Shown here piece after piece: positions 7,550 through 49,601 of a DNA stretch of 56,303 nucleotides (the stretch's first letter is position 1; each line of letters starts with the position of its first letter). The stretch spans positions 1 to 56,303 of the forward strand of contig CAZUZG010000003.1 in assembly GCA_964624665.1 (NCBI GenBank), written 5' to 3'. The notes beneath the pieces are model-generated. The model saw nothing but the letters and a program-made list of their open reading frames with translations. It was not told the origin of the DNA and did no database searches. The stretch is from an uncultured Candidatus Saccharibacteria bacterium. Its GTDB lineage: Bacteria; Patescibacteriota; Minisyncoccia; Phycocordibacterales; UBA9973. Position numbers and translations under genes: made by a program.

Positions 7550-8095
7550 ATGAAACAGTTTTTTTTATTACTACTTATTTCTATAAGCCTTGCGGCTTGT
7601 ACAAAGGACAATCGTTACGAAGAAGACCCCTGGACCCCCTTCGGACATGATGCTACAAGGCACCTTAGAGAGACCCACTGGCAGGTAATACAATTATGGG
7701 TAGATGGCATAGACAGTACCGCCCAGATTATGTGCGATACCTGTCATTATTTTGATGAGTATCGCTTTTACGACCCGCCTCCCTATAAAGATTGGTACTA
7801 CAGACCATGGTCAGGGGGAGCGGCTTTTTATAAGAATAAATTAATTTACAGATTCTCGTGGAAGGTTGAGAGCCACGATATGCTCTGGTTGTACGCGAAT
7901 AAATTTGCTAACAATATATATGAACACGGTGCTTTTCATCAGTTTACTTCTGAACCGGATTATTCTCACCCCACAGTAATCAATAACTATATGCCTGCCT
8001 GGAAAATTAAAAAATTCTCACGTGGCGATCTTAAAATAGAAATGAGTTATATGGGTCACACATACATACAACTATGGAAAGAAATAAAAAAATAG
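7550..8095 (+). CDS. lipoprotein, lipocalin-like
   Basis: Lipobox ISLAAC; W..W.V.G.DST pattern. Confidence 0.75.
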   Translation: MKQFFLLLLISISLAACTKDNRYEEDPWTPFGHDATRHLRETHWQVIQLWVDGIDSTAQIMCDTCHYFDEYRFYDPPPYKDWYYRPWSGGAAFYKNKLIYRFSWKVESHDMLWLYANKFANNIYEHGAFHQFTSEPDYSHPTVINNYMPAWKIKKFSRGDLKIEMSYMGHTYIQLWKEIKK

Positions 8096-10488
8096 TCCTA
8101 CTTTTTATGCTATTATTAACGGCAGAGGTTAAGGCGCAAAGCAGTTCGCAGAACCTGGCCAAATACTGGTATTTAAGAGATCGGCTCCTTAACCATTTCG
8201 CGCCCATTGGCACGGGCCGTTCCGAGAGTTTTGCGGCCGCCATTACTTATGGTCATGATTGGAAATATGAAAATGACACAACCATTCATTATGGCGATTC
8301 ACCCAATCATCAGGCATTATACATAGGTGTTTTAGCCACCGAGTACCGCCTTTTAAAAAACAACGGGCAGGATGTAAGCCAAACCGTTAAGGAGCTGTGG
8401 CATGCCATTTATGCTATAAACCGCATGGATATGAACGAGAGCCATTGCCCCTGGAACAGGGATGGCGCTACCGGCAATTTTAATGGCCGGACAGATGTTT
8501 TGAATGGCTTTTACAGCCGGGAAGATATATTTGAAGAAGGTTCCATAGCGTGGGATGCCGGTTTTAGTTCTATTAATAATAATAACTCATTAATAAGTAA
8601 GGTCAACGAAAATGTCGCTGATCCGGCTTTGGATAATCAGTTGGGTAACCCACCTAAAGTGGGTTTAGTTTCCTGTGGGGTATACAGGGTAATTGAGGAA
8701 AATGGATTTAATTTCATCAGCTACCCCATTTATCCTTATCAAAAACATACCGTTGATATATGCCAGGAAGGTGCCGCATACAGTTTCGATTATTATACCA
8801 GCCTTTTTGTGGCCTTTGCCCAGGTTGTAAAATACCTCGACGATGGTGTTAACTTTAATCAGCAACCATTTCAGGATAATGAAACAGATATAAAGCAGGA
8901 GGTTAAAAGAATAACTGACCGTATGATGGCCTATATAGAAACCGGCCCTTATGGAAATGGTACTACGCCCTTTTTGCTCCTCGAGCCCGATGGCGATGAG
9001 GTGCATAAGTGGGGCAGAACAGCCGTACATTTTGCCTATGGTATGGAAATGGCAGCTTATAAAATTACCGGCGACAATGCTTATAGCATAAAAGCAAGTA
9101 ATTTATATGTACCTGGACTAATTCCGGGTGAATCTGAAAATTTATGGACCTCATTAATTGATATTTATGTTGGTGGCTCGGATGCCCTTACAGCCCTTTC
9201 ACAATTTGTTGACGCAAATTTCGACTATAATTTGCTAGATGGTACTAATTCGGTTTGGGAGGTATTAAACATAGCGGCCGTAGGCGACTCATGGGACGAG
9301 CCTCTAAGAAGCACCCAAAATAATATCTGGTTGGCGAGTCATTCTAATGGTTGGGAAAGTTACTATCCGCTGCTTCATGCTTGCCTTCAGGATAAAAATT
9401 GCATTACCTCCAATTCCACCATTGAGGACGATTTAAATTCCATGCCCTGCGGGGGAAACTATAACCTGGGAGATGGAGTTGTTTCGCCTGGATGGGCCGT
9501 TCCCATAAAATGGCATTACCGGTATGGCGAAACATTGTCTGGAAGAAGTGGAACGGACAAGGATGGCATTTTTAATTCCCTCGACTGGATGATGCTCTTT
9601 AACCTTTATTGCCTGTATAATGATAATTATGTAGGCAGCTACCACAAGGTAATGCACGAAGATTTAAACCTCACCGGTTCCTTACCCATTGTGCTTCCTA
9701 CATTACCTTCTAATCCATATTTAGTGGCCGAAGGTTCAGAGAGTACTGGCTCATCAGCTATTTTAGCCAACCCTAAAAAATATGTTACAACAGGAACAAT
9801 AACATCTAACCAAATAATTGAAAATAAAAATTTAAGCGGCACCTATACCGCTTACGATTTTACAAACCAAACACCTGTAACCATAAACATTACAATTACA
9901 GATAATGCCATAGCCGATGTTACCTATAAATCTGCATCAACAATACGTTTAACATCAGGTTTTCATGCAAAACCGGGCGTTAAATTTCACGCATATACCG
10001 CCCCCTTGCATTGCAATAGCAGTGGCACAGACTACGAGCGTTTATCAAATAACACAAACAGCGGCAAGGATAATACCGTTGCAAGCCCAACCAATGAATT
10101 TAAACAAACAACACCAATTAATCAGAATGTGGCCATAAGCAATTCAGGATATAAAACAACAGGCGCAGGGAATGTTAATGCTAACAGAAGCGTAGCAAGC
10201 AATGCAGCATCGAGCGTTGCAAAAAGCGGTGGAAATATTTTTGCCATTGCACCTAACCCTAATACAGGCCTGTTTGAAATAAATTATTCAACAATTTTGC
10301 AAACCAACAATGCAGTTCGTGTTTCAATTACAGATGTTTCCGGGCGAGTGGTATGGCAACAACAGCAAGAAGGCGGTACAAGCAGTTACATATGGCCGGT
10401 CAATCTGAGCCAATACTCCAAAGGATTATATTTAATTAAATTGCAGAATGGGGAAGTAACTAAAACAGGAAGGATTGTTATAAATTAA
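8074..10488 (+). CDS. T9SS type A CTD-containing secreted protein with uncharacterised N-terminal domain
   Basis: Signal peptide; IRLTSGFHAKPG coathanger-like motif; C-terminal IAPNP...ITDVSGRVV...KGLYLIK..RIVIN. Confidence 0.85.
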   Translation: MERNKKIVLLFMLLLTAEVKAQSSSQNLAKYWYLRDRLLNHFAPIGTGRSESFAAAITYGHDWKYENDTTIHYGDSPNHQALYIGVLATEYRLLKNNGQDVSQTVKELWHAIYAINRMDMNESHCPWNRDGATGNFNGRTDVLNGFYSREDIFEEGSIAWDAGFSSINNNNSLISKVNENVADPALDNQLGNPPKVGLVSCGVYRVIEENGFNFISYPIYPYQKHTVDICQEGAAYSFDYYTSLFVAFAQVVKYLDDGVNFNQQPFQDNETDIKQEVKRITDRMMAYIETGPYGNGTTPFLLLEPDGDEVHKWGRTAVHFAYGMEMAAYKITGDNAYSIKASNLYVPGLIPGESENLWTSLIDIYVGGSDALTALSQFVDANFDYNLLDGTNSVWEVLNIAAVGDSWDEPLRSTQNNIWLASHSNGWESYYPLLHACLQDKNCITSNSTIEDDLNSMPCGGNYNLGDGVVSPGWAVPIKWHYRYGETLSGRSGTDKDGIFNSLDWMMLFNLYCLYNDNYVGSYHKVMHEDLNLTGSLPIVLPTLPSNPYLVAEGSESTGSSAILANPKKYVTTGTITSNQIIENKNLSGTYTAYDFTNQTPVTINITITDNAIADVTYKSASTIRLTSGFHAKPGVKFHAYTAPLHCNSSGTDYERLSNNTNSGKDNTVASPTNEFKQTTPINQNVAISNSGYKTTGAGNVNANRSVASNAASSVAKSGGNIFAIAPNPNTGLFEINYSTILQTNNAVRVSITDVSGRVVWQQQQEGGTSSYIWPVNLSQYSKGLYLIKLQNGEVTKTGRIVIN

Positions 10489-19671: not shown

Positions 19672-21123
19672 ATGAATAAAATTGCAACTTCAATATTCGA
19701 TTTTACTGAAAAAGCCCTGATATATATCTTCGATGGTTTAGAGGATTTCATAAAAGGCGCGCCAAAGGGCAATGAAGGCTACACTGCGAGCTTTGCTCCT
19801 ACCAGCACTTTGCTTTCTTCAAGGCACACCGGCTTCTGCTTGACGGGCGATAAAAGCCTGGAAGCTAAAAGAAGCTTTCAAAACTCAATAGTTTTCGGTG
19901 GAACGGGTGTCGGAAAATCTACAGTAGTACTGCTTCCGAGCCTCTATTCAATGAACAATTTTTCTTTCGTAGTCCATGATCCCTCATCTGAACTATTTCT
20001 TAAATCTTCTGCCTACCTTGAATCTATTGGATATACGGTCAAAGTCTTAAACTTCAGCGATCCCTCGATATCCTGCGGATACAATCCTTTAGCCAAAGCA
20101 AACACTTCTTCTGAAATCAATCGGGTGGCACAGCTTCTAATTTCAACTTCATTGGGGAGTAATAATAAGGATCAGTTCTGGTCGAATCTCGCGCAAACCC
20201 TCATATTCCTGCTCATTTCAATCCTAAAAAAAGGTGAGCCGAAATATTGCAATCTATTTAATGTTCGAATGCTGTTAAATCAAATGGGCGGTTCACCCGA
20301 AAAAATCGACAAGCTATTTTCCGAACAAGCAGATGAAATCCTATTTTCAGAATACAAAAGCTTTGTCAGCTATGACGATAAGGTCGTGTCGGGCGTAATT
20401 GCAACCTGCAAGAGCGCATTGCAAATCTTCGCGGACGATTCCGTTGTGCGTGTTACATCTCATGACGAAATAGATTTTCAAGAATTCCGGGATAAAAAAG
20501 TCGCACTTTACATCCAGTGCAAGACAGCAGACCAGAAATACCTATCGGTTCTTACGAGCTTGCTATTCGAAGAGATGTTTGCTTTCTCAATGTCGAAACT
20601 GCCTGCTCCGCATGAAAAACCAATAGCACTACTTATTGATGAAGCGGGAAGCCTGAAGCTTCCGATGCTCCAGCTTGCTGTCGCTAATTGCCGGAAATTT
20701 TCCGTTGCGATCATGTGCCTTTATCAATCCTGGGATGAAGTAATACATTGCTACACCAAGCACTCTGCCGAGGCTATCAAGGCTAACTGTTTTGCAAAAA
20801 TGTATTTCACCGGGCAGAATTTGGACACTTCTACTGAGTTGGAAAAATTGCTTGGAAAGCATGAATACAAAGAGAAAAATAAAGAGGGTCGAGAGGAAAC
20901 TAAAATCCGCAGTTTATTAACCGCTGATGAAATCAGGACTTTAAAAATCACTGAAGCCCTCTTGATTTGTGGGCATCATTTACCGCTGAAAATTAAGCTC
21001 CGCCCCTACTATGAGAACAAAACATATTTAAGATACAGCACTATGCCCGTGCCTCCATTACAGAGCAACATACCTGAAACAGTTGCCATATTGCCATTGC
21101 CTGAAGTCGGAACTAACGAATGA
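19672..21123 (+). CDS. VirD4/TraG-family type IV coupling protein
   Basis: Walker A GGTGVGKS, HDPSSEL, YNPL, FW, Walker B LLIDEAG, LLTADEIR. Confidence 0.9.
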   Translation: MNKIATSIFDFTEKALIYIFDGLEDFIKGAPKGNEGYTASFAPTSTLLSSRHTGFCLTGDKSLEAKRSFQNSIVFGGTGVGKSTVVLLPSLYSMNNFSFVVHDPSSELFLKSSAYLESIGYTVKVLNFSDPSISCGYNPLAKANTSSEINRVAQLLISTSLGSNNKDQFWSNLAQTLIFLLISILKKGEPKYCNLFNVRMLLNQMGGSPEKIDKLFSEQADEILFSEYKSFVSYDDKVVSGVIATCKSALQIFADDSVVRVTSHDEIDFQEFRDKKVALYIQCKTADQKYLSVLTSLLFEEMFAFSMSKLPAPHEKPIALLIDEAGSLKLPMLQLAVANCRKFSVAIMCLYQSWDEVIHCYTKHSAEAIKANCFAKMYFTGQNLDTSTELEKLLGKHEYKEKNKEGREETKIRSLLTADEIRTLKITEALLICGHHLPLKIKLRPYYENKTYLRYSTMPVPPLQSNIPETVAILPLPEVGTNE

Positions 21124-27198: not shown

Positions 27199-28602
27199 AT
27201 GAAAACACAACTACTCCTTTATCTATTCCTTACACTGATAGCAGGGAATTGCTACGCTCAACCCTCTAATGACGAGTGTTCAAATCCAATTCTATTAACA
27301 CCCTCAAGCACAAATTCTTGTAGCTATACCACAGGAACAACATCAGGGGCCACCCAGAGCATGACAACCTATTCTTGCAATGGAGCGCAGGGCAATGCCG
27401 ATGATGATGTTTGGTTTGCATTCTATTCGAATGCAACATCAGAAGTAATAACAGTTATTGGCTGTTCGGGTTTTGACGCTGTTGTTGAAATAAGAGGGAA
27501 TTGCGTCAATCCTTCCGTACCTATCTCTTGCGCAGATGCCACTGCCGACGGTGGCACAGAAACAATCACTTTAAACAATCTTGGCTGGAATACCTACCGG
27601 TTAATAAGGGTATACAATTATGGAACAGGTTCCGGTTCGGGATCATTTCAGATTTGCGTGTCTCAATTTACGCCAACCGTTACCGCTTGCTCCTTAAGCG
27701 GAATTACTCCCACACTCTCATCGCCGGGTTCAAATTCTTCCCCTGGGCAAACCGTTTCAACAACAAGCCCGACTCTTTCATGGAATAATGTATCAAACGC
27801 ATCAAACTACGAGGTATATATCAGCAAATATCCATATGGCTCTGCAAATATCATCTTTCAAGACCTTTGCGTTTCGGGGACATCTCTAACTATCCCGTCA
27901 GGATATTTAGTCAGCGGTACTCAGTATCGCTGGAATATAATCGGCGTTTCCAGTTGTGGCAGTTGTTGCTACACCAACGCCGCTTCACCATTGTATTTTA
28001 ATGTCGGAGGAGGTTGCGCCATTGCTTCCGTAACCCCCACAATCAATTCGCCGGGCAGTAGCTCATCGCCTGGGCAAAACATCGGCATAACAACGACTCC
28101 AACGCTTTCTTGGAATGCTGTATCAGGCGCAACCGATTACGGAGTATATATACGGGATATGTATACCAACTCATTAATACTTAATGACGATTGCGCCTCA
28201 TCAGGGACAAGTTATATCGTTCCTTCCGGCATTCTATACAACGGAGGGCAATTCAGATGGAATGTCCAGGCTAATGTAAGCTGTGGTTCTTGCGCGAGTA
28301 ATTTTGCATCTCCCTTGTATTTTACAATTTCAACCACAGTCGGCGGATTAAATGATTTTACTGAAAGGGAATTTAATATTTATCCCAATCCAAACTCCGG
28401 CACATTTACCTTGAAATTGGACGCTGTAAATATTCCAGTTCAGATAAAAGTAATAAATGCTATTGGCGAAACTATCTATTCTGAAGCCACAAAAAATCTC
28501 TCAAAAAAAGAAATCAATTTAAGCCATGTTCCGACAGGAGTCTATTCTGTTCATGTAATTGCCGGAGAAAAGAATTATCATGAAAAAATTGTGATCGAGT
28601 AA
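27199..28602 (+). CDS. Cys-rich T9SS CTD protein with two FN3-like repeats
   Basis: Signal peptide; PSNDEC and DDDVWF motifs; duplicated SPG...PTLSWN.VS.A..Y.VYI; CTD IYPNPN...GVYSV. Confidence 0.85.
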   Translation: MKTQLLLYLFLTLIAGNCYAQPSNDECSNPILLTPSSTNSCSYTTGTTSGATQSMTTYSCNGAQGNADDDVWFAFYSNATSEVITVIGCSGFDAVVEIRGNCVNPSVPISCADATADGGTETITLNNLGWNTYRLIRVYNYGTGSGSGSFQICVSQFTPTVTACSLSGITPTLSSPGSNSSPGQTVSTTSPTLSWNNVSNASNYEVYISKYPYGSANIIFQDLCVSGTSLTIPSGYLVSGTQYRWNIIGVSSCGSCCYTNAASPLYFNVGGGCAIASVTPTINSPGSSSSPGQNIGITTTPTLSWNAVSGATDYGVYIRDMYTNSLILNDDCASSGTSYIVPSGILYNGGQFRWNVQANVSCGSCASNFASPLYFTISTTVGGLNDFTEREFNIYPNPNSGTFTLKLDAVNIPVQIKVINAIGETIYSEATKNLSKKEINLSHVPTGVYSVHVIAGEKNYHEKIVIE

Positions 28603-28613
28603 TTTAAACGGCT

Positions 28614-30581
28614 ATGAAAAAAATTACGCTCTCAATACTGTTGCTTATCACCAATCTAATCGCGCCTTTAAACGAAGCAAGCGGACAAACCCAATACCAA
28701 CCCCAATACAAAATCACCGCTAAGAATATAAAAGGTAATGCCGAGATAAAGCAGAACTTCATATATATCAATCCGGGCAATTACGAAATTTTGGATATCG
28801 ACTCTTTAATTAAAATAGAAAAACGGTTTAGCAAAACGCCCGTAAAAATCTCGGTGCTTAACTTTTATCTCTATTTCGAGGATAGCAAAGGAAAAATCCG
28901 GCATATTTACTATGAAGACGAAAGCCGGCAAAAAAAGGGGATAAATAATTCGGTAAAGAGCAATTATATTCAATTATTACGTGATTCCGCCGAAGAAGGA
29001 TATATGCCTTTAGAAACGGCTTTCTCCTACCTATACCAAAAAGCGATTAAAGAAAAGAGTGCTTGCTTCCAATTATCTGACATACTTGTAGAAAAAAGAG
29101 AACCATGGGCAACAAGACCCAAGCTTGAAAAACTTGAAGACACGCAATTCCTGATTGTCTCCGGCCGACCGACAATTCAAACCATTTCAACAGTTCCAAC
29201 AGAAAAACCCAAGCATCTATTTGCAAGGCTGATAATTGAAAGCAGTAATCAGGAACGATCCAATGGCAAATCTATCCCCGTTAAATCTCTGGACAAAGAC
29301 GGGAAAATCATCGAATCAACCGTTACCGACCAATGGGGCGACTTTTCACTCAGCGTAAAAGATAAAAGCGAATTAAATCTTAAAATTGACGCAAAGCTGG
29401 AAAAAGACCAAAAGCTATTCTTAGCCAGGCAGACGGGTAAGGTTGTAAGAGAAATAAAGAGAAATGCGAAAGGTGATTTCATGTTTTCAATATTGCCGGC
29501 TGATATCGTAAAGCTGGAACTAACAGAAGAAGCTGATCCGGTATTGAAGCTGGCTAAATCGCCCCCAAACCCTGCAACTTCAACGACTCTTGTAAAACGT
29601 ATTTCCTTTGCCAATAGCAATTATGATATTTCAGAAAAGGCAAAAGGGGAATTGGAAAGCATCGTTTCATATATGAAAGCCAACCCAAAAATACACCTTG
29701 AGCTTATCGGGCATACCGATTCAAAAGGGGGAGAACAGGCAAACCTGATTTTATCGAACAAAAGAGTTCAATCGATTATCAGCTACCTAAACAAAAATGG
29801 AATTCAAAAAGGAAGATTGATAGGCTACGGCAAAGGGGAGTCGCAATTGCTCAATCGCTGCAAGGATAGCGTTGAATGTTCGGAAAATGAGCATGAACAA
29901 AATCGCAGGGTTGAATTGATTTTCGGCTATCGAAAAAAAGTAGAGTTTAGCGGAACGGTTTTAAACGACGAAAACAAGCCGATTGAAGCCGAAATAACAG
30001 TCGAAGATGAACGACATGAGATCAAAAAGATCAGGAGCAATCCAATGACGGGGAAGTATATGTTTTCAGCTAATTTGATGCAAGGCAGGTCTTACACGAT
30101 CAATATCATGAATGACATTTTTTTTGTTTCCACTAAAGAATTTAAAGTTTCCGAATCAGACGAAAAAAACAAGGAGCTGGCTAATATCAAGACGATTTTG
30201 CCGAAACTGAAAAAAGGCGGGAAATATACCTTGGGAAACATTCATTTTCAACCCGACTCTCCTGAACTTCTGCGAACATCTTATCCGTCTGTTATTTCAT
30301 TATGCAAATTAATGAAGAAGAATCCGAAGATGATTATACAAATACAAGGCCATGTAAATCATCCGTTTAACGGAGGACTGTGCAATAATCCGAATCATCA
30401 ACATCTGTCTGAACTAAGAGCTCAAACTGTATATAACATTCTTATATCTAAAAATATTGAGAAAGACAGACTGTCTTATGTCGGCCTTGGCGACAAGGAA
30501 CAGCTTTATCCCAGAGCCAATAGCGATGAAGAGTTTGAGAAAAATAGAAGGGTAGAGATAAAGGTTGTGAGGGTTAAATGA
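28614..30581 (+). CDS. double OmpA-like domain protein (PorE-like)
   Basis: GHTD...LS.KR...NRRVE and GHVN...LSELRA...NRRVE. Confidence 0.85.
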   Translation: MKKITLSILLLITNLIAPLNEASGQTQYQPQYKITAKNIKGNAEIKQNFIYINPGNYEILDIDSLIKIEKRFSKTPVKISVLNFYLYFEDSKGKIRHIYYEDESRQKKGINNSVKSNYIQLLRDSAEEGYMPLETAFSYLYQKAIKEKSACFQLSDILVEKREPWATRPKLEKLEDTQFLIVSGRPTIQTISTVPTEKPKHLFARLIIESSNQERSNGKSIPVKSLDKDGKIIESTVTDQWGDFSLSVKDKSELNLKIDAKLEKDQKLFLARQTGKVVREIKRNAKGDFMFSILPADIVKLELTEEADPVLKLAKSPPNPATSTTLVKRISFANSNYDISEKAKGELESIVSYMKANPKIHLELIGHTDSKGGEQANLILSNKRVQSIISYLNKNGIQKGRLIGYGKGESQLLNRCKDSVECSENEHEQNRRVELIFGYRKKVEFSGTVLNDENKPIEAEITVEDERHEIKKIRSNPMTGKYMFSANLMQGRSYTINIMNDIFFVSTKEFKVSESDEKNKELANIKTILPKLKKGGKYTLGNIHFQPDSPELLRTSYPSVISLCKLMKKNPKMIIQIQGHVNHPFNGGLCNNPNHQHLSELRAQTVYNILISKNIEKDRLSYVGLGDKEQLYPRANSDEEFEKNRRVEIKVVRVK

Positions 30582-30669
30582 TTTTCGGTTGTTTTATTAG
30601 CCAAATTTATTTAATAGAACTATAAACAAAAATTAAACTATTTCTAAACTCAACACCCCGTTTTTGCCA

Positions 30670-30698
30670 TTGACAAACTAACAATAGATTGCTATACT
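30670..30698 (+). promoter_or_regulatory. consensus sigma70 promoter with extended -10
   Basis: TTGACA-17-TATACT preceded by TG; overlaps palindrome TACTAAC-ctc-GTTAGTA. Confidence 0.8.
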
Positions 30699-30704
30699 AA
30701 CCTC

Positions 30705-30954
30705 GTTAGTATTTACAAGTTAATACAAAAACCCGTTGCCCTATAAGGGATCTTCCGCCAAAAGCGGAACGAGGCAAACAACGAAGCTATTCAAATCATC
30801 ATAAGAGAATTGTATTCCGATACCCTTGTGATAGTTTTATGAAGTAAAGCTCTCGATTGCCTCGGCGAGCTTTAAAGTGAAGCTTGCCGGGACAATCCGG
30901 ATACAAGCTTTGCGTAATAGCCCCGCTTGGTTCGCCATGCGGGGTTTATTATTT
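30705..30954 (+). ncRNA. putative structured ncRNA/leader upstream of tyrosine recombinase
   Basis: At least six stems, 8-nt long-range complement CGAGGCAA/TTGCCTCG, and a terminal GC hairpin with T tract. Confidence 0.6.
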
Positions 30955-32022
30955 ATGAGATTAAGCGAGGCAGTAAAAGAATTTGTTGAATTAAAAAAAG
31001 TCAAAGGCCCACGCTCCAGAAAAACAGGAGCGCGTTACGAATGTAGCCTAAGAATATTTTGTCTTTGCATGCAAGATCCCGAACTGGAAGATATAGATCT
31101 CGCTCATGTCATTTGGTATTTAGGCGAAATGGAAAGACTCGGCTGGAAACCGAACGGAATAAATCTTATTGGCCTTGCATTGAGAAAGCTTTTTGAGTTC
31201 TGTCATTTAAGAGGTTATAACGTAGCCTTCAGCGAACTACTTATTCCATTAAAAGAAAAAAGTTTTAATGTTCCCCGGGTCACAGACTTAACTACATTTA
31301 AAAAACTATTGGCTCAAATCCCGGAAAACACAGGAGAGCCACGCGCTATCAGAAACAGGGCCATTCTTCTTATGCTTTGGGACACAGGCGTTCGGTCTGG
31401 CGAATTGATGTCTCTCGACCTTGTTGATCTTGATTTGGAAAAAAGAACCGCATTTATTAAAACAGAGAAATCAAGAGGCCGAAGACCTGTCCGGCAAATT
31501 TTCTGGACAGAGCCTACTCATCAGGCATTACTAAAATGGATAGAAAAACAGGAACACTTAAGAAGCAAATTTAATTTCACTGATCCTGAAGCATTATTTA
31601 CCTCTATTTCAAAATCGCCAAGACTCCCTCTTCGTGGTTGCAGATTGACATCAAGAGGAGTAGCCGAAACAATGAGGGTGCTTTCCAATAAGGCTGATCT
31701 TCCTTGTGTTGTTAATGCACACGCCGTTCGTCATTCTATGGGACGAGACACAGTTAAAATTCTTCGAAGCAATTCAGCAGTCTCAAATATTCTTGGCCAC
31801 TCTAGCCTGGAAAGCTCTTATGTTTACACTATGCTGTTCGGTGAAGATTTAAAAGAACAATGGTCTGAAGTAATGAAAGGAAGAGGCAACCCAATGGCAC
31901 AGGCTCCAAAAAGAGCTATCGGCTTTCCACGATTCAAAAACGAGCCAAGCTCTGTAATTAAGGGCCAATTTCGGCCAACGACAATAAGGACATCTAATGG
32001 TGGGAGGTTTGTAAGAGCATAA
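30955..32022 (+). CDS. XerC/D-like tyrosine recombinase
   Basis: RNRAIL..LWDTGVRSGEL, KTEK, HAVRH, LGH, Y. Confidence 0.9.
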   Translation: MRLSEAVKEFVELKKVKGPRSRKTGARYECSLRIFCLCMQDPELEDIDLAHVIWYLGEMERLGWKPNGINLIGLALRKLFEFCHLRGYNVAFSELLIPLKEKSFNVPRVTDLTTFKKLLAQIPENTGEPRAIRNRAILLMLWDTGVRSGELMSLDLVDLDLEKRTAFIKTEKSRGRRPVRQIFWTEPTHQALLKWIEKQEHLRSKFNFTDPEALFTSISKSPRLPLRGCRLTSRGVAETMRVLSNKADLPCVVNAHAVRHSMGRDTVKILRSNSAVSNILGHSSLESSYVYTMLFGEDLKEQWSEVMKGRGNPMAQAPKRAIGFPRFKNEPSSVIKGQFRPTTIRTSNGGRFVRA

Positions 32023-32078
32023 GTTTATGACAAGAATTAATCTTGCATTTCTTAAGCTTGATATAGTACAATTAAGGC

Positions 32079-32369
32079 ATGAAAAAAACATCATCAAAAA
32101 AAGAAGTCTCCGTAAACGATTTGGCAATAATGGTGGCTAAGGGATTTGAGAGTGTTAATCAAAGGTTTGACCAAATAGACACAAGATTTGCCAAGATCGA
32201 TTTAAGATTTGAAAAAATTGAAAACAAAATGGATGTGCTTGATGAAAACCTTAAAGCCACAAGGCGCGAGATACTTGATATTGGAGACCGTTTTGTTCCA
32301 AGGTTTGAGTTTGACAACCTCCTTATTCGTTTCAACAAGTTAGAACAAAAGTTATTAAAAGGGAAGTAG
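32079..32369 (+). CDS. coiled-coil hypothetical protein typical of Parcubacteria
   Basis: DLAIMVAKGF plus RF..ID heptads. Confidence 0.8.
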   Translation: MKKTSSKKEVSVNDLAIMVAKGFESVNQRFDQIDTRFAKIDLRFEKIENKMDVLDENLKATRREILDIGDRFVPRFEFDNLLIRFNKLEQKLLKGK

Positions 32370-32573
32370 AAGAATTGATCGACATTTGTATATCCACACC
32401 ACTACTCTTTATTTTTTTATAGGAAAATAGTATGATTCAAGGGATTTAAAGTCTTTGTTTACTTAATAGTGGTTATTATTTTCCTACACTACCCGCATGG
32501 TACGATAACGAAATGGGATATACTTTTACTCTAGTTGACCATGTTTTGAAATCGGGAGAGAATCTTTAAATAT

Positions 32574-32879
32574 ATGGAAAGCTATAATAAATTAGTCCGA
32601 GATGGAATCCCTGAAATGCTAGACGGCAAAGGAGTAATATATGAAAAAAGAATTGCTTCTGATGAAGAATATAAAGTAGAGCTTATTAAAAAACTTGCAG
32701 AAGAAATTAATGAATTTCAAGAAGTAGGTGATATCGAAGAATTGGCTGATGTGATTGAAGTTATAGAAGCTTTAAAAAAACTTCCTGAATATGAAAATGT
32801 CGAAGAAATAAGGCAGAAAAAACTTGAAGAACGCGGAGGTTTTGAACAAAGAATTATTCTTAAGGGAGAGAAAAAATAA
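32574..32879 (+). CDS. MazG-like NTP pyrophosphohydrolase
   Basis: YNKLVRDGIP, EELADVIEVI, KKLEERGGF. Confidence 0.85.
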   Translation: MESYNKLVRDGIPEMLDGKGVIYEKRIASDEEYKVELIKKLAEEINEFQEVGDIEELADVIEVIEALKKLPEYENVEEIRQKKLEERGGFEQRIILKGEKK

Positions 32880-33377
32880 ATGAAAATATACATAGCATCA
32901 GACCATGCAGGATTTAAATTAAAAAGGGAATTGATCGACTTCATCAAGAAGTTGGATTTTAGAAATGAAATTATCGACCTCGGTCCTTTTGCCTATGATG
33001 AGAATGATGACTATTCTGATACTGTTGTGCCGGTCGCCAAAGCTATTCAAAATGAGTCGGAATCTTTTGGTGTAGTTATTGGTGGCTCGGGCGAGGGGGA
33101 AGCCATGGTGGTCAATCGATTTAAAGGAGTTAGGGCTTCTGTTTTCTACGGCGAGCATACGCCAATACAGTATGTCGATATGACTTTGAGAGAAAGCACT
33201 GATCCGTATGAAATAGTAAAACTTTCTCGTTTACATAATGACGCCAATGTTTTATCGATTGGCGCGAGATTTGCAAGCGAAGCCGAAGCCAAAATGGCCG
33301 TGCAATTATTTTTAGAGACAAAATTCAGCGGCGAAGAAAGGCACTTGAGAAGAATTAATAAAATAGATAATTTATAA
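32880..33377 (+). CDS. rpiB: ribose-5-phosphate isomerase B
   Basis: IASDHAG, GGSGEGE, HNDANVL, RHLRRI. Confidence 0.93.
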   Translation: MKIYIASDHAGFKLKRELIDFIKKLDFRNEIIDLGPFAYDENDDYSDTVVPVAKAIQNESESFGVVIGGSGEGEAMVVNRFKGVRASVFYGEHTPIQYVDMTLRESTDPYEIVKLSRLHNDANVLSIGARFASEAEAKMAVQLFLETKFSGEERHLRRINKIDNL

Positions 33378-33382
33378 AAAAA

Positions 33383-34066
33383 GTGGAAAATTTTAATCAA
33401 GGTTTTGTTTCTTTGTCTTTTGATGATGGTTGGAAAAATCACTATACGAGAGCATTGCCAATTCTTGAAAAATATAAAATAAAGGCGACTTTTTATGTCA
33501 TTACTAAAATGCCTAAATATATGCTCGAGGAAGGAGAGGGCAGAATGAATGTCGAAGATTGGATCGATCTTGAAAAAAGAGGACATGAGATCGGATCTCA
33601 TACGAGGACTCACCCCCATTTAAGTTTTTGTTTTTCAAAAAGATTAAAAAATGAAATTACGGGCTCAAAAGAAGATCTTGTTAGTATTGGAATTAATGCC
33701 AAGACTTTTGCTTATCCTTATGGTTCATTTAATTTAAAAGTTGTTCAGTCTGTAAAAGATGCGGGTTATATAGGAGCTAGAGCTTTTCATTATAAATTAG
33801 GTTACGGATTTAATTATAAAAATGAAAACAAGCATTTATTTAAAACCCAAGCAGTTGTTTGGAACTCTAAAATAGATGAAGTTATAGGCTGGATTGAAAA
33901 AGCAGTCGCTGAAAAATCATGGCTGATTCTAAGCTTTCATCAGGTCGAAAATAAAAAGAATGAATGGGGCACAAGTCCGGAAATTTTAGAAAAAATTTGC
34001 CAATATATTTCAGATAAGAAAATAAAAACTCTGACTGTCGCAGACGGTATTAAAATGTTAGACTAA
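33383..34066 (+). CDS. polysaccharide deacetylase (NodB family)
   Basis: SFDDG, HEIGSHTRTH, FAYPYG, LSFH. Confidence 0.9.
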   Translation: MENFNQGFVSLSFDDGWKNHYTRALPILEKYKIKATFYVITKMPKYMLEEGEGRMNVEDWIDLEKRGHEIGSHTRTHPHLSFCFSKRLKNEITGSKEDLVSIGINAKTFAYPYGSFNLKVVQSVKDAGYIGARAFHYKLGYGFNYKNENKHLFKTQAVVWNSKIDEVIGWIEKAVAEKSWLILSFHQVENKKNEWGTSPEILEKICQYISDKKIKTLTVADGIKMLD

Positions 34067-49528: not shown

Positions 49529-49601
49529 GCGCGTGTAGCTCAGCTGGTAGAGCATTCGACTGATACTCGAAAGGTCCCAGGTTCGATCCCTGGCACGCGC
49601 A
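49529..49601 (+). tRNA. tRNA-Ile(GAT)
   Basis: Acceptor GCGCGTG/CACGCGC, D arm GCTC/GAGC, anticodon arm TTCGA-CTGATAC-TCGAA, T arm CCAGG-TTCGATC-CCTGG; CCA not encoded. Confidence 0.9.

Follow-up and report, generated by a model that had tools for sequence, protein, structure and literature searches.

A covarying leader RNA family that may gate integrase expression in mobile elements of candidate phyla radiation bacteria

Riboswitch and attenuator leaders work by sharing a strand, the 3′ strand of the aptamer's P1 helix being held in common with an antiterminator. The IS110 enzyme is a DEDD/RuvC-like plus Tnp recombinase. For phage-type integrases, the part of PMC2951348 consulted describes promoter autoregulation by KplE1 IntS, which binds near the −10 element, and by P4 Int, a proposed binding of P4 Vis to int mRNA, and the lambda sib site, while the consulted parts of PMC5737381 and PMC11109978 mention integrases solely in connection with integron attC sites and mobile repeats. 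The literature searched, taken without supplements, describes neither a structured RNA upstream of tyrosine integrases nor gap as an attachment site. Here we analyze such an RNA in a 56,303-nt stretch of DNA from an uncultured Candidatus Saccharibacteria bacterium (assembly GCA_964624665.1, contig CAZUZG010000003.1, positions 1 to 56,303; hereafter the window). The RNA, a leader of about 250 nt, lies with its promoter within positions 30670–30954 of the + strand and ends at the ATG (30955) of a gene for an Xer-like tyrosine recombinase, or integrase. We have very high confidence that this leader belongs to a real RNA family with real pairings, and we consider it rather probable that the leader gates integrase expression in cis by alternative pairing, as a two-state switch.

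A structured RNA family upstream of integrase genes

The locus had been singled out in a sequence-only reading as an undescribed noncoding RNA that resembles no known RNA pattern and is coupled to a recombinase. Its absence from Rfam 15 and from the literature searched agrees with this description: no family matched the leader at its gathering threshold, and the sole match at these thresholds in the whole window was a tRNA at 49529. Relaxing the cutoff to E = 10 for positions 30400–31200 gave four matches, all at chance level (the best 19.3 bits against a threshold of 90); a palindromic miRNA-like chance match on both strands in this sensitive scan reflects the alternative pairing between hairpins H1 and H2 described below. 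Eight homologous loci gave no Rfam match at E ≤ 1. ARAGORN found no transfer-messenger RNA (tmRNA) at the leader locus, and in the source genome (705 kb, 44 contigs) tmRNA and RNase P are on contigs other than the window's, while models of the small signal recognition particle (SRP) RNA and of 6S RNA found nothing in it. With tmRNA and RNase P located elsewhere and no pointer from the sensitive Rfam scan, we ruled out a housekeeping RNA (tmRNA, RNase P, SRP or 6S). The leader is not a core RNA either, because it is sporadic and linked to the integrase.

Folding of the region 30700–30955 is stronger than expected by chance, since its predicted energy of −91.1 kcal/mol compares with −60.2 ± 5.0 kcal/mol for 200 dinucleotide shuffles, none of which folded as well (z = −6.2). 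Primary sequence carries little of the signal. A BLAST-type search of 61 related genomes with the leader returned just three short, chance-level matches, and the window leader had no BLAST-level match to any other locus that we collected. Because similarity at this level is nil, the conservation must be structural, and the family is detectable solely through its structure and the neighboring protein.

Integrase loci were gathered from genome contigs (27), IMG/VR (11) and metagenomes (80), giving 93 distinct upstream regions, and the homologues' upstream regions have, by eye, the same architecture as the window leader. We built a covariance model of 211 positions (R1) on a 51-sequence MAFFT alignment (A3). 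R1 matches 78 loci at E ≤ 1e-6, representing 75 distinct sequences that make up the R1-fitted alignment A4. All matches are on the integrase strand, directly upstream of the related integrase genes, which bears out the proposed coupling of RNA and recombinase; they stop at the integrase start codon (tabulated match starts, 6001/3001), apart from three that end 5–7 nt upstream. The leader is single-copy in the source genome, and across a 151-genome sample of the order R1 matched four genomes: the source genome, two known integrase carriers and one weak match.

From 5′ to 3′, family members consist of helices P1, P2 and P3, a single-stranded junction segment J of 7–8 nt, the P1 3′ strand, a linker, a middle region and a long hairpin. 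P1 is usually CCAUUG/CAAUGG and P2 is CCC-GAAA-GGG, with P3 variable and the middle region made of one to four variable hairpins. The long terminal hairpin carries in its loop J′, the complement of J, and its 3′ strand reaches the start codon; across the 75 sequences the median terminal hairpin has 18 bp, a predicted energy of −23.9 kcal/mol and a distance of 3 nt from the ATG. A compact form of 154 nt occurs at locus L053. We also considered an upstream open reading frame (ORF) beginning at an AUG inside J and rejected it, because the AUG is not conserved and other J types lack it. As a separate observation, loci of the candidate phyla radiation (CPR) type contain a hairpin whose AGCU loop is self-complementary and invariant and whose closing pair covaries (for example locus L042, 5930–5945; columns 166–179 of alignment A2), in the versions CCCAAGCUUGGG, CCCUAGCUAGGG and CCCCAGCUGGGG, with GCCGCCAGCUGGCGG in another subgroup. 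This hairpin could mediate loop–loop dimerization of two leader RNAs.

A promoter (TTGACA with at most one mismatch, a spacer of 16–18 nt and TAnnnT) is found 3–37 nt upstream of the RNA in 56 of the 74 loci with enough flanking sequence, and no separate integrase promoter is conserved among family loci. The window promoter, of sigma-70 type (30670–30698, + strand), consists of TTGACA (30670–75), a 17-nt spacer, TG and TATACT (30693–98). It was rightly placed by the sequence-only reading, which called it perfect; it matches 11 of 12 consensus positions. Overlapping its −10 element and start site is an inverted repeat with perfect 8-bp arms, ATACTAAC-CTC-GTTAGTAT (30694–30712, no strand assigned), and a perfect inverted repeat of at least 6 bp occupies the equivalent place in 42 of the 56 family loci having the promoter. 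The arms covary between loci (CACTACA/TGTAGTG, CACTATA/TATAGTG, CACTCTA/TAGAGTG and CACTCCA/TGGAGTG, as against ATACTAAC/GTTAGTAT in the window). We read this repeat as a DNA site and not as part of the RNA because its left arm lies upstream of the predicted start; it is probably an operator-like site for an element-specific dimeric DNA-binding protein.

Covariation and two mutually exclusive folds

In alignment A3, the combined pairs of P1, P2, the terminal hairpin and J:J′ are paired in 90.4% of 1408 cells, and 20 of 28 pairs change on both sides. None of 500 shuffles reached any of the five measures used, with the limit that the sequences are related, so that the shuffle controls overstate independence and significance; controls with strands slid out of register paired in 30–49% of cells. 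The larger alignment A4 (75 distinct sequences) is paired in 93.7% of cells. Here the J:J′ helix, the long-range 8-nt pseudoknot that had been predicted from the window alone, stands out, with 98.1% of cells paired and compensatory change in seven of eight pairs, including one that is AU in 28, CG in 21 and GC in 17 sequences and never unpaired. This pairing is not a product of fitting, because J:J′ is absent from the structure of the model.

The terminal hairpin contains 36 G·U cells against 2 A·C cells, and thus the pattern is that of a folded + strand transcript rather than of duplex DNA. This bears on the idea that the conserved pairing is a DNA-level structure, such as a folded single-stranded DNA site, protein-binding arms of attP or a replication origin. 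The attachment site attP does lie next to int in these elements, the inverted repeat at −10 is probably a DNA operator, and single-stranded DNA and RNA motifs are hard to separate by covariation, as noted in the consulted part of PMC5737381. We nevertheless consider a DNA-level structure extremely improbable, given the RNA-like G·U excess on the + strand, the conserved promoter upstream and the position of the att core, which is downstream of int and about 1.5 kb from the junction; protein-binding arms, moreover, would conserve sequence and not pairing.

A second set of pairs competes with P1 and the terminal hairpin. On the CPR-type subset, RNAalifold extended J:J′ into a helix of about 20 bp by pairing the P1 3′ strand and linker to the 5′ strand of the terminal hairpin. 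For 46 of 47 distinct loci, the predicted energy of the duplex formed by J, the P1 3′ strand and the linker lies between −19 and −34 kcal/mol, with a mean of −25.7 kcal/mol against −17.6 for cross-locus controls. It ends 11–25 nt before the ATG in 45 of the 47; the window is an outlier at 89 nt, and locus L146 failed because its junction was mis-picked. The pairs specific to this alternative, between the P1 3′ strand plus linker and the hairpin 5′ strand, are paired in 86–89% of cells with compensatory change in 9 of 11, against 29–52% for slid controls, and they survive complete turnover of the sequence (ACUUUU/AAAAGU in one group, GGUGCU/GGCAC in another). Single columns follow both folds: column 82 can pair with column 9 in P1 (AU 57, GC 14) or with column 296 in the alternative (UA 56, CG 10), and column 296 also pairs with column 327 in the hairpin (AU 56, GC 12). 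When each fold was enforced, the mean energies were −82.1 kcal/mol for the fold with P1 and the terminal hairpin (OFF) and −79.3 kcal/mol for the alternative (ON), and unconstrained minimum free energy (MFE) folding produced the terminal hairpin in 31 of 75 sequences and the long-range helix in 20.

We therefore favor an attenuator, one of the functions suggested in the sequence-only reading, because J, the P1 3′ strand and the linker are complementary to the 5′ half of the start-codon hairpin, both folds covary and the two are nearly iso-energetic; the other functions suggested there, a guide or recombinase cofactor, found no support, as discussed below. The RNA lies between promoter and coding sequence and has two exclusive predicted pairings, one of which would sequester the initiation region, as expected of a cis-acting leader. 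The proposed mechanism is as follows. The RNA of about 250 nt would be the transcribed leader of the integrase gene on a gap-targeting prophage-like element or integrative and conjugative element (ICE). In the OFF state the P1-P2-P3 junction would be folded and the long GC-rich hairpin would stand beside the start codon, its upper stem and U-run resembling an intrinsic terminator and its 3′ strand covering about 20 nt before the AUG, so that transcription would stop, ribosomes could not load, or both. In the ON state J would pair with J′ in the hairpin loop as a toehold, and the P1 3′ strand and linker would then invade the hairpin 5′ strand, giving the long-range helix of about 20 bp and freeing the U-rich initiation region. 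In this way the terminal hairpin would serve as an expression platform, hiding the initiation region and perhaps also terminating transcription. Switching in the cell, its level (transcription or translation) and its trigger are what we infer from the above.

Several observations, besides the relatedness of the sequences, weigh against a switch of this kind. In most terminal hairpins the U-run is part of a longer stem, where it pairs with an A-run further upstream; a strict rule (a stem, then 5 or more T within 8 nt) is therefore satisfied by just 6 of 75, and canonical intrinsic termination is doubtful for most loci. The ON-specific pairs are noisier than the others (86.3% paired, with 34 A·C cells exceeding 20 G·U cells), and the similarity between P1 and the terminal helix could have a different origin, such as a duplication or a protein partner common to both. 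J:J′ may just as well be a static pseudoknot within one compact fold. J and most unpaired positions are variable, unlike those of typical metabolite aptamers. In the window, the loop of the terminal hairpin does not contain J′, so the simple switch model cannot be transferred directly to this copy, and no RNA run is listed with window positions 30000–33500.

Some of these observations would fit a static structured leader or processing signal, in which P1, the terminal hairpin and J:J′ form one compact fold holding the integrase at a constitutively low level of expression or determining how stable the mRNA is (as an RNase III-type substrate, for instance), in spirit like lambda sib retroregulation and without ligand or switching. 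These three elements are compatible in a single pseudoknotted fold and are the best-supported pairs, the terminal hairpin is long and abuts the ATG, few unpaired nucleotides are conserved, and control of int through the distal sib site is mentioned in the consulted part of PMC2951348. A static leader would, however, leave unexplained why the P1 3′ strand and linker have kept their complementarity to the hairpin 5′ strand through sequence turnover, and why the two folds lie within about 3 kcal/mol of each other on average, and we consider it unlikely.

The window copy and the junction as a separate module

All of the motifs named in the sequence-only reading were found in the window, on the + strand, where it had placed them. 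The 5′ three-way junction (30734–30783) consists of P1 (CGTTG/CAACG, 30734–38/30779–83), P2 (CCCT/AGGG, 30739–42/30746–49), P3 (TTCCGC/GCGGAA, 30753–58/30764–69) and the single-stranded 8-mer J, CGAGGCAA (30770–77), which is complementary to J′. It scores 44.7 bits (E = 2.6e-9) with a junction-only model of 59 positions (R2). The next segment (30784–30844) holds the linker GAAGCTA, an alternative partner of the H1 5′ strand, and a middle hairpin, ATCATAAG/CTTGTGAT (30798–805/30825–32; hairpin 30798–30832), in the region that varies in length and sequence across the family. Hairpin H1 has the stem TAAAGCTC/GAGCTTTA (30845–52/30867–74), and its loop carries J′, TTGCCTCG (30857–64). Hairpin H2 follows at 30880–30910 (AAGCTTGCCGG / CCGG-ATA-CAAGCTT); its 5′ strand can pair instead with the H1 loop and 3′ strand, and does so in the window MFE fold, forming a long alternative hairpin. 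Last comes a GC-rich terminal hairpin (CCCCGC..GCGGGG, 30921–44) with a T-rich run, TTTATTATTT; this terminator-like feature (30921–30954) ends at the start codon and includes a terminator-like site at 30931–43 plus GTTTATTATT. Folded in isolation, the terminal hairpin has 16 bp and −20.6 kcal/mol, its 3′ end being 2 nt before the ATG, and it is predicted to sequester the translation initiation region.

The wiring of the window copy is atypical because an extra hairpin, H2, separates the J′-bearing hairpin from the terminal hairpin, which is the one that aligns with the family's hairpin. H1 is the window counterpart of the start-codon-proximal hairpin of the family, yet it lies 89 nt from the ATG. 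The duplex of J and linker with the H1 5′ strand and loop has a predicted energy of −19.6 kcal/mol, against −13.6 for a cross-locus control. The 5′ junction is of the GAGGCAA type, otherwise seen with integrases just 42–46% identical to that of the window, while the closest integrase relatives (70–72% identical) have J strands of the GAUGCGA(G/A)/GAUGCUAG type. Leader and enzyme have thus been reshuffled.

The three-way junction also occurs without the rest of the leader. R2 found solitary copies in L095 (8155–8213, 47.6 bits), L129 (4854–4909, 44.6 bits) and L032 (3916–3990, 29.4 bits), all located beyond the att fragment on its downstream side, at the attL or attP-distal end of the element opposite the leader. 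In L129 and L032 the J of this extra copy is identical to that of the leader in the same element, and in L095 it differs from it by 1 nt. In L095 and L129 the start codon of a homologous ORF of about 90–100 aa lies inside J and the P1 3′ strand. Genome G406 has a second junction about 110 nt past the stop codon of full-length gap, on the attL side, upstream of the same ORF family. The source genome has no second junction, its sole other R2 match scoring 19 bits (E = 0.05). Second junction and ORF together are found at 8155–8514 in L095, 4854–5180 in L129 and 1501–1932 in L194 (G406:C30), and the ORFs share VTYRRYGIPALILEGKWL; the family has no Pfam match at E ≤ 0.1, so a SymE/AbrB identity that we had considered is unsupported.

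The position of the junction over the start codon of another gene would point to a cis-regulatory sensor with a shared effector and not to a recombinase cofactor, and its recurrence on a second gene hints at a shared factor. Given that the junction is found by itself over the start codon of a second gene in these elements, the likeliest effector of the favored two-state switch is one binding the three-way junction, whether a small ligand, the integrase, or a protein acting in excision or repression. We put forward only tentatively a wider proposal, in which the junction would serve temperate elements of both CPR/Patescibacteria and Bacteroidota as a new aptamer-like sensor. On binding a specific effector (a small molecule, or an element-encoded protein such as the basic tail of the integrase or the small-ORF product), the junction would couple that signal, by toehold-mediated strand exchange, to the integrase at one prophage end and to the second gene at the other, as a switch for the decision between integration and excision. 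In a bolder variant, the terminated leader would also act in trans and join both ends by kissing of J and J′.

Trans action is also the core of a different explanation, that the transcript is a small RNA ending at the terminal hairpin and regulating other element or host transcripts, for example by J′ kissing the J of a second junction, with read-through into the integrase incidental. The strong conserved promoter and terminator-like 3′ hairpin would suit such an RNA, and pairing in trans would be possible with the second junctions, whose J equals that of the leader or nearly does. But the RNA always ends at the integrase ATG, a separate integrase promoter is not conserved, and second junctions were found in only four elements and not in the source genome; we regard an independent trans-acting RNA as distinctly unlikely.

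The integrase, its island and comparison with known systems

The integrase (30955–32022, + strand) has 355 aa and matches Pfam PF00589 (Phage_integrase) with 70.2 bits against a cutoff of 27.1. Invariant alignment columns among eight homologues include R147, H256, R259, H282 and Y291, which we take to be the R, H-x-x-R, H and Y of the tyrosine recombinase catalytic set (R, K, H-x-x-R, H/W, Y). Its best NCBIfam matches are XerC (102.9 bits, cutoff 335.15), XerD (87.3 bits, cutoff 329.6) and XerA; with scores far under the cutoffs, it is Xer-like and not an equivalog of XerC or XerD. The sequence-only reading was thus correct in describing an Xer-like tyrosine recombinase with a basic C-terminal extension: residues 294–355, beyond the Pfam domain, are basic and partly conserved. 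The integrase is sporadic, occurring in 10 of 401 genomes of the order including the source genome, and GenBank phages contain no relative at E ≤ 1e-20.

The resemblance to bridge RNAs had led to the proposal of a recombinase cofactor or guide; by analogy with IS110, the RNA would form a ribonucleoprotein and aid att recognition or synapsis. Strict co-occurrence with one integrase clade, the conserved basic tail and a complex fold with GNRA loops would be consistent with this. The suggested check, whether variable loops match flanking DNA, went against it. When the RNAs of 19 loci were compared with the 90 nt surrounding the att core, the longest exact matches measured 6–9 nt; they occurred in both orientations and at inconsistent positions in the RNA, so that no consistent complementarity was found. 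The gap core is common to all elements, yet J differs between them, and the variable 8-mers pair with each other and not with DNA. Mimicry of att by hairpin P5, which is core-like (GGGTAT-like) in some loci, was ruled out because P5 covaries freely. The three-way junction, furthermore, also stands alone on the start codon of another gene. A guide or cofactor is in our view very unlikely and the bridge-RNA analogy is unsupported, the match search bearing on guides longer than very short split ones.

Leader and integrase form one end of an island. In relatives lacking the integrase, full-length gap (GAPDH) ends just upstream of rpiB in 22 of 29 rpiB loci, and integrase-bearing loci have only the last ~24 gap codons at this rpiB-side position. 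In the window, rpiB starts at 32880 and the remnant (AWYDNEMGYTFTLVDHVLKSGENL and the stop codon; 32495–32569, + strand) is the attR left when the island inserted. Foreign DNA had been proposed to begin just upstream of the promoter. There is indeed foreign DNA there, but the proposal is incomplete, since the island also takes in the RNA and integrase as its right end, with the junction at 32495–32569. Of 27 loci, 23 have the motif TGGTAYnnnnAYGARnTnGGnTAY downstream of int, and three of these have it two or three times; the tandem att-like copies (L045, L046 and L049) suggest a hot spot with stacked elements. The intact gap of the source genome runs from the end of contig C28 into the start of contig C42, and at its 3′ end it is similar to the copy borne by the element of the closest relative. 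A prophage- or ICE-like island is thus inserted in the 3′ end of gap, its left junction non-contiguous with the window in the assembly. The element family as a whole attaches at the conserved gap 3′ end (...WYDNEMGYT...; loci L064–L091) in many CPR lineages and carries a replacement gap end. Within the window, a search for direct repeats flanking the island returned only AT-rich chance repeats, and the junction was recognized from the gap remnant.

Other features recur near these sites. The motif GGTCGAAnATTA was seen by eye after the intact gap and at the attL or attP-distal side of other elements. An AT-rich motif (TTATTAGCCAA / GGTCGAAATTATTAGCCA-like), likewise found by eye, lies at 30590–30612 in the window, upstream of the promoter of the int leader, and also at about 400–420 in C42, 1480–1500 in L194 and 4835–4853 in L129; recurring just after gap on the attL side, it may be an arm-type site for protein binding. 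The interval between int and the gap remnant encodes a coiled-coil-like protein of about 95 aa with repeated RFDKID-type motifs (window 32079–32369; L049, about 7700–8110), and at other loci an unrelated protein of about 80 aa (family f9). Neither matches Pfam or NCBIfam, and both are candidates for an excision or directionality factor.

Cargo listed for the window island (8074–10485, 19672–21120, 27199–28602 and 28614–30581) comprises two proteins with C-terminal sorting domains of the type IX secretion system, an OmpA-family protein and a type IV secretion system coupling protein (TraG/VirD4, 19672–21120). PHROGs returned for ten window proteins only weak tail-fiber-like matches and one of unknown function. 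TrpR-like and phosphoribosyltransferase-like genes upstream in CPR loci are also cargo, because they are present only alongside the integrase (5 of 201 genomes). IMG/VR and Bacteroidota-labeled contigs have int, a gap fragment and then AAA_24, RepO-like and methylase genes, with an S49 protease upstream, an arrangement that fits the attP form of a temperate phage. The closest integrase relatives (68–72% identical) are on contigs binned as Bacteroidia, and the Bacteroidota-type cargo in a CPR genome suggests either cross-phylum transfer or mis-binning of a shared mobile element.

We also examined the integrity of the assembly. DNA contigs from three runs cover 30549–33029 without differences, and they contain no excision or empty-site joint. 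The OmpA-gene stretch (28600–30580) has sequence variants and up to threefold summed contig depth, and one contig diverges at 30579; related copies of this stretch exist in other organisms of the sample, so that a chimeric join at 30579 is possible. Depth is alike on both sides of 30579, and the side with int, attR and rpiB has the arrangement typical of CPR.

If the favored reading of the leader as a switch is right, the family, with 75 or more distinct members and unusually strong covariation support, would constitute a new structured class of regulatory RNA. It would control a key enzyme of lysogeny and island mobility in CPR/Patescibacteria, their phages and Bacteroidota, where regulation is barely known, and would provide a candidate resembling an orphan riboswitch whose read-out, integrase expression, is clear, as well as a naturally occurring toehold-type intramolecular switch. 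Independently of that reading, the elements form a family that has the conserved end of GAPDH as its attachment site across phyla, which explains the Bacteroidota-type cargo in a 0.7-Mb CPR genome. There is also a negative lesson, that a structured RNA beside a recombinase need not be a bridge-type guide.

Among described systems, XerC and XerD share with the window integrase its core-binding and catalytic domain architecture; the integrase differs from them in its sporadic distribution, its place at an island end in gap, its basic C-terminal tail and its score (102.9 against 335 bits). The locus is like IS110 bridge RNA/seekRNA, as far as the consulted parts of PMC11208160 and PMC11208158 describe these, in having a structured noncoding RNA with its own promoter beside a mobile-element recombinase gene. 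It is unlike them in that the enzyme is a tyrosine recombinase, no loops complementary to target or donor were found and the variable segments pair intramolecularly. With KplE1 IntS and P4 it would share tight negative control of int, the inverted repeat overlapping −10 here where Int-binding sites do so there; unlike KplE1, P4 and sib as described in the consulted part of PMC2951348, the leader here is a covarying RNA of about 200 nt with a long-range helix, and attP lies downstream of int instead of overlapping its promoter. We hold with moderate confidence that these RNAs are a new class of leader controlling an integrase, the attenuator/riboswitch logic itself being already known. As in riboswitch and attenuator leaders, the 3′ strand of the helix closing the 5′ junction has a second complement in the 5′ half of a terminator-like hairpin. 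Unlike riboswitches, the leader has no Rfam family or known ligand and few conserved unpaired nucleotides, and it adds to their logic an extra covarying toehold between junction and loop, with an integrase as the regulated gene.

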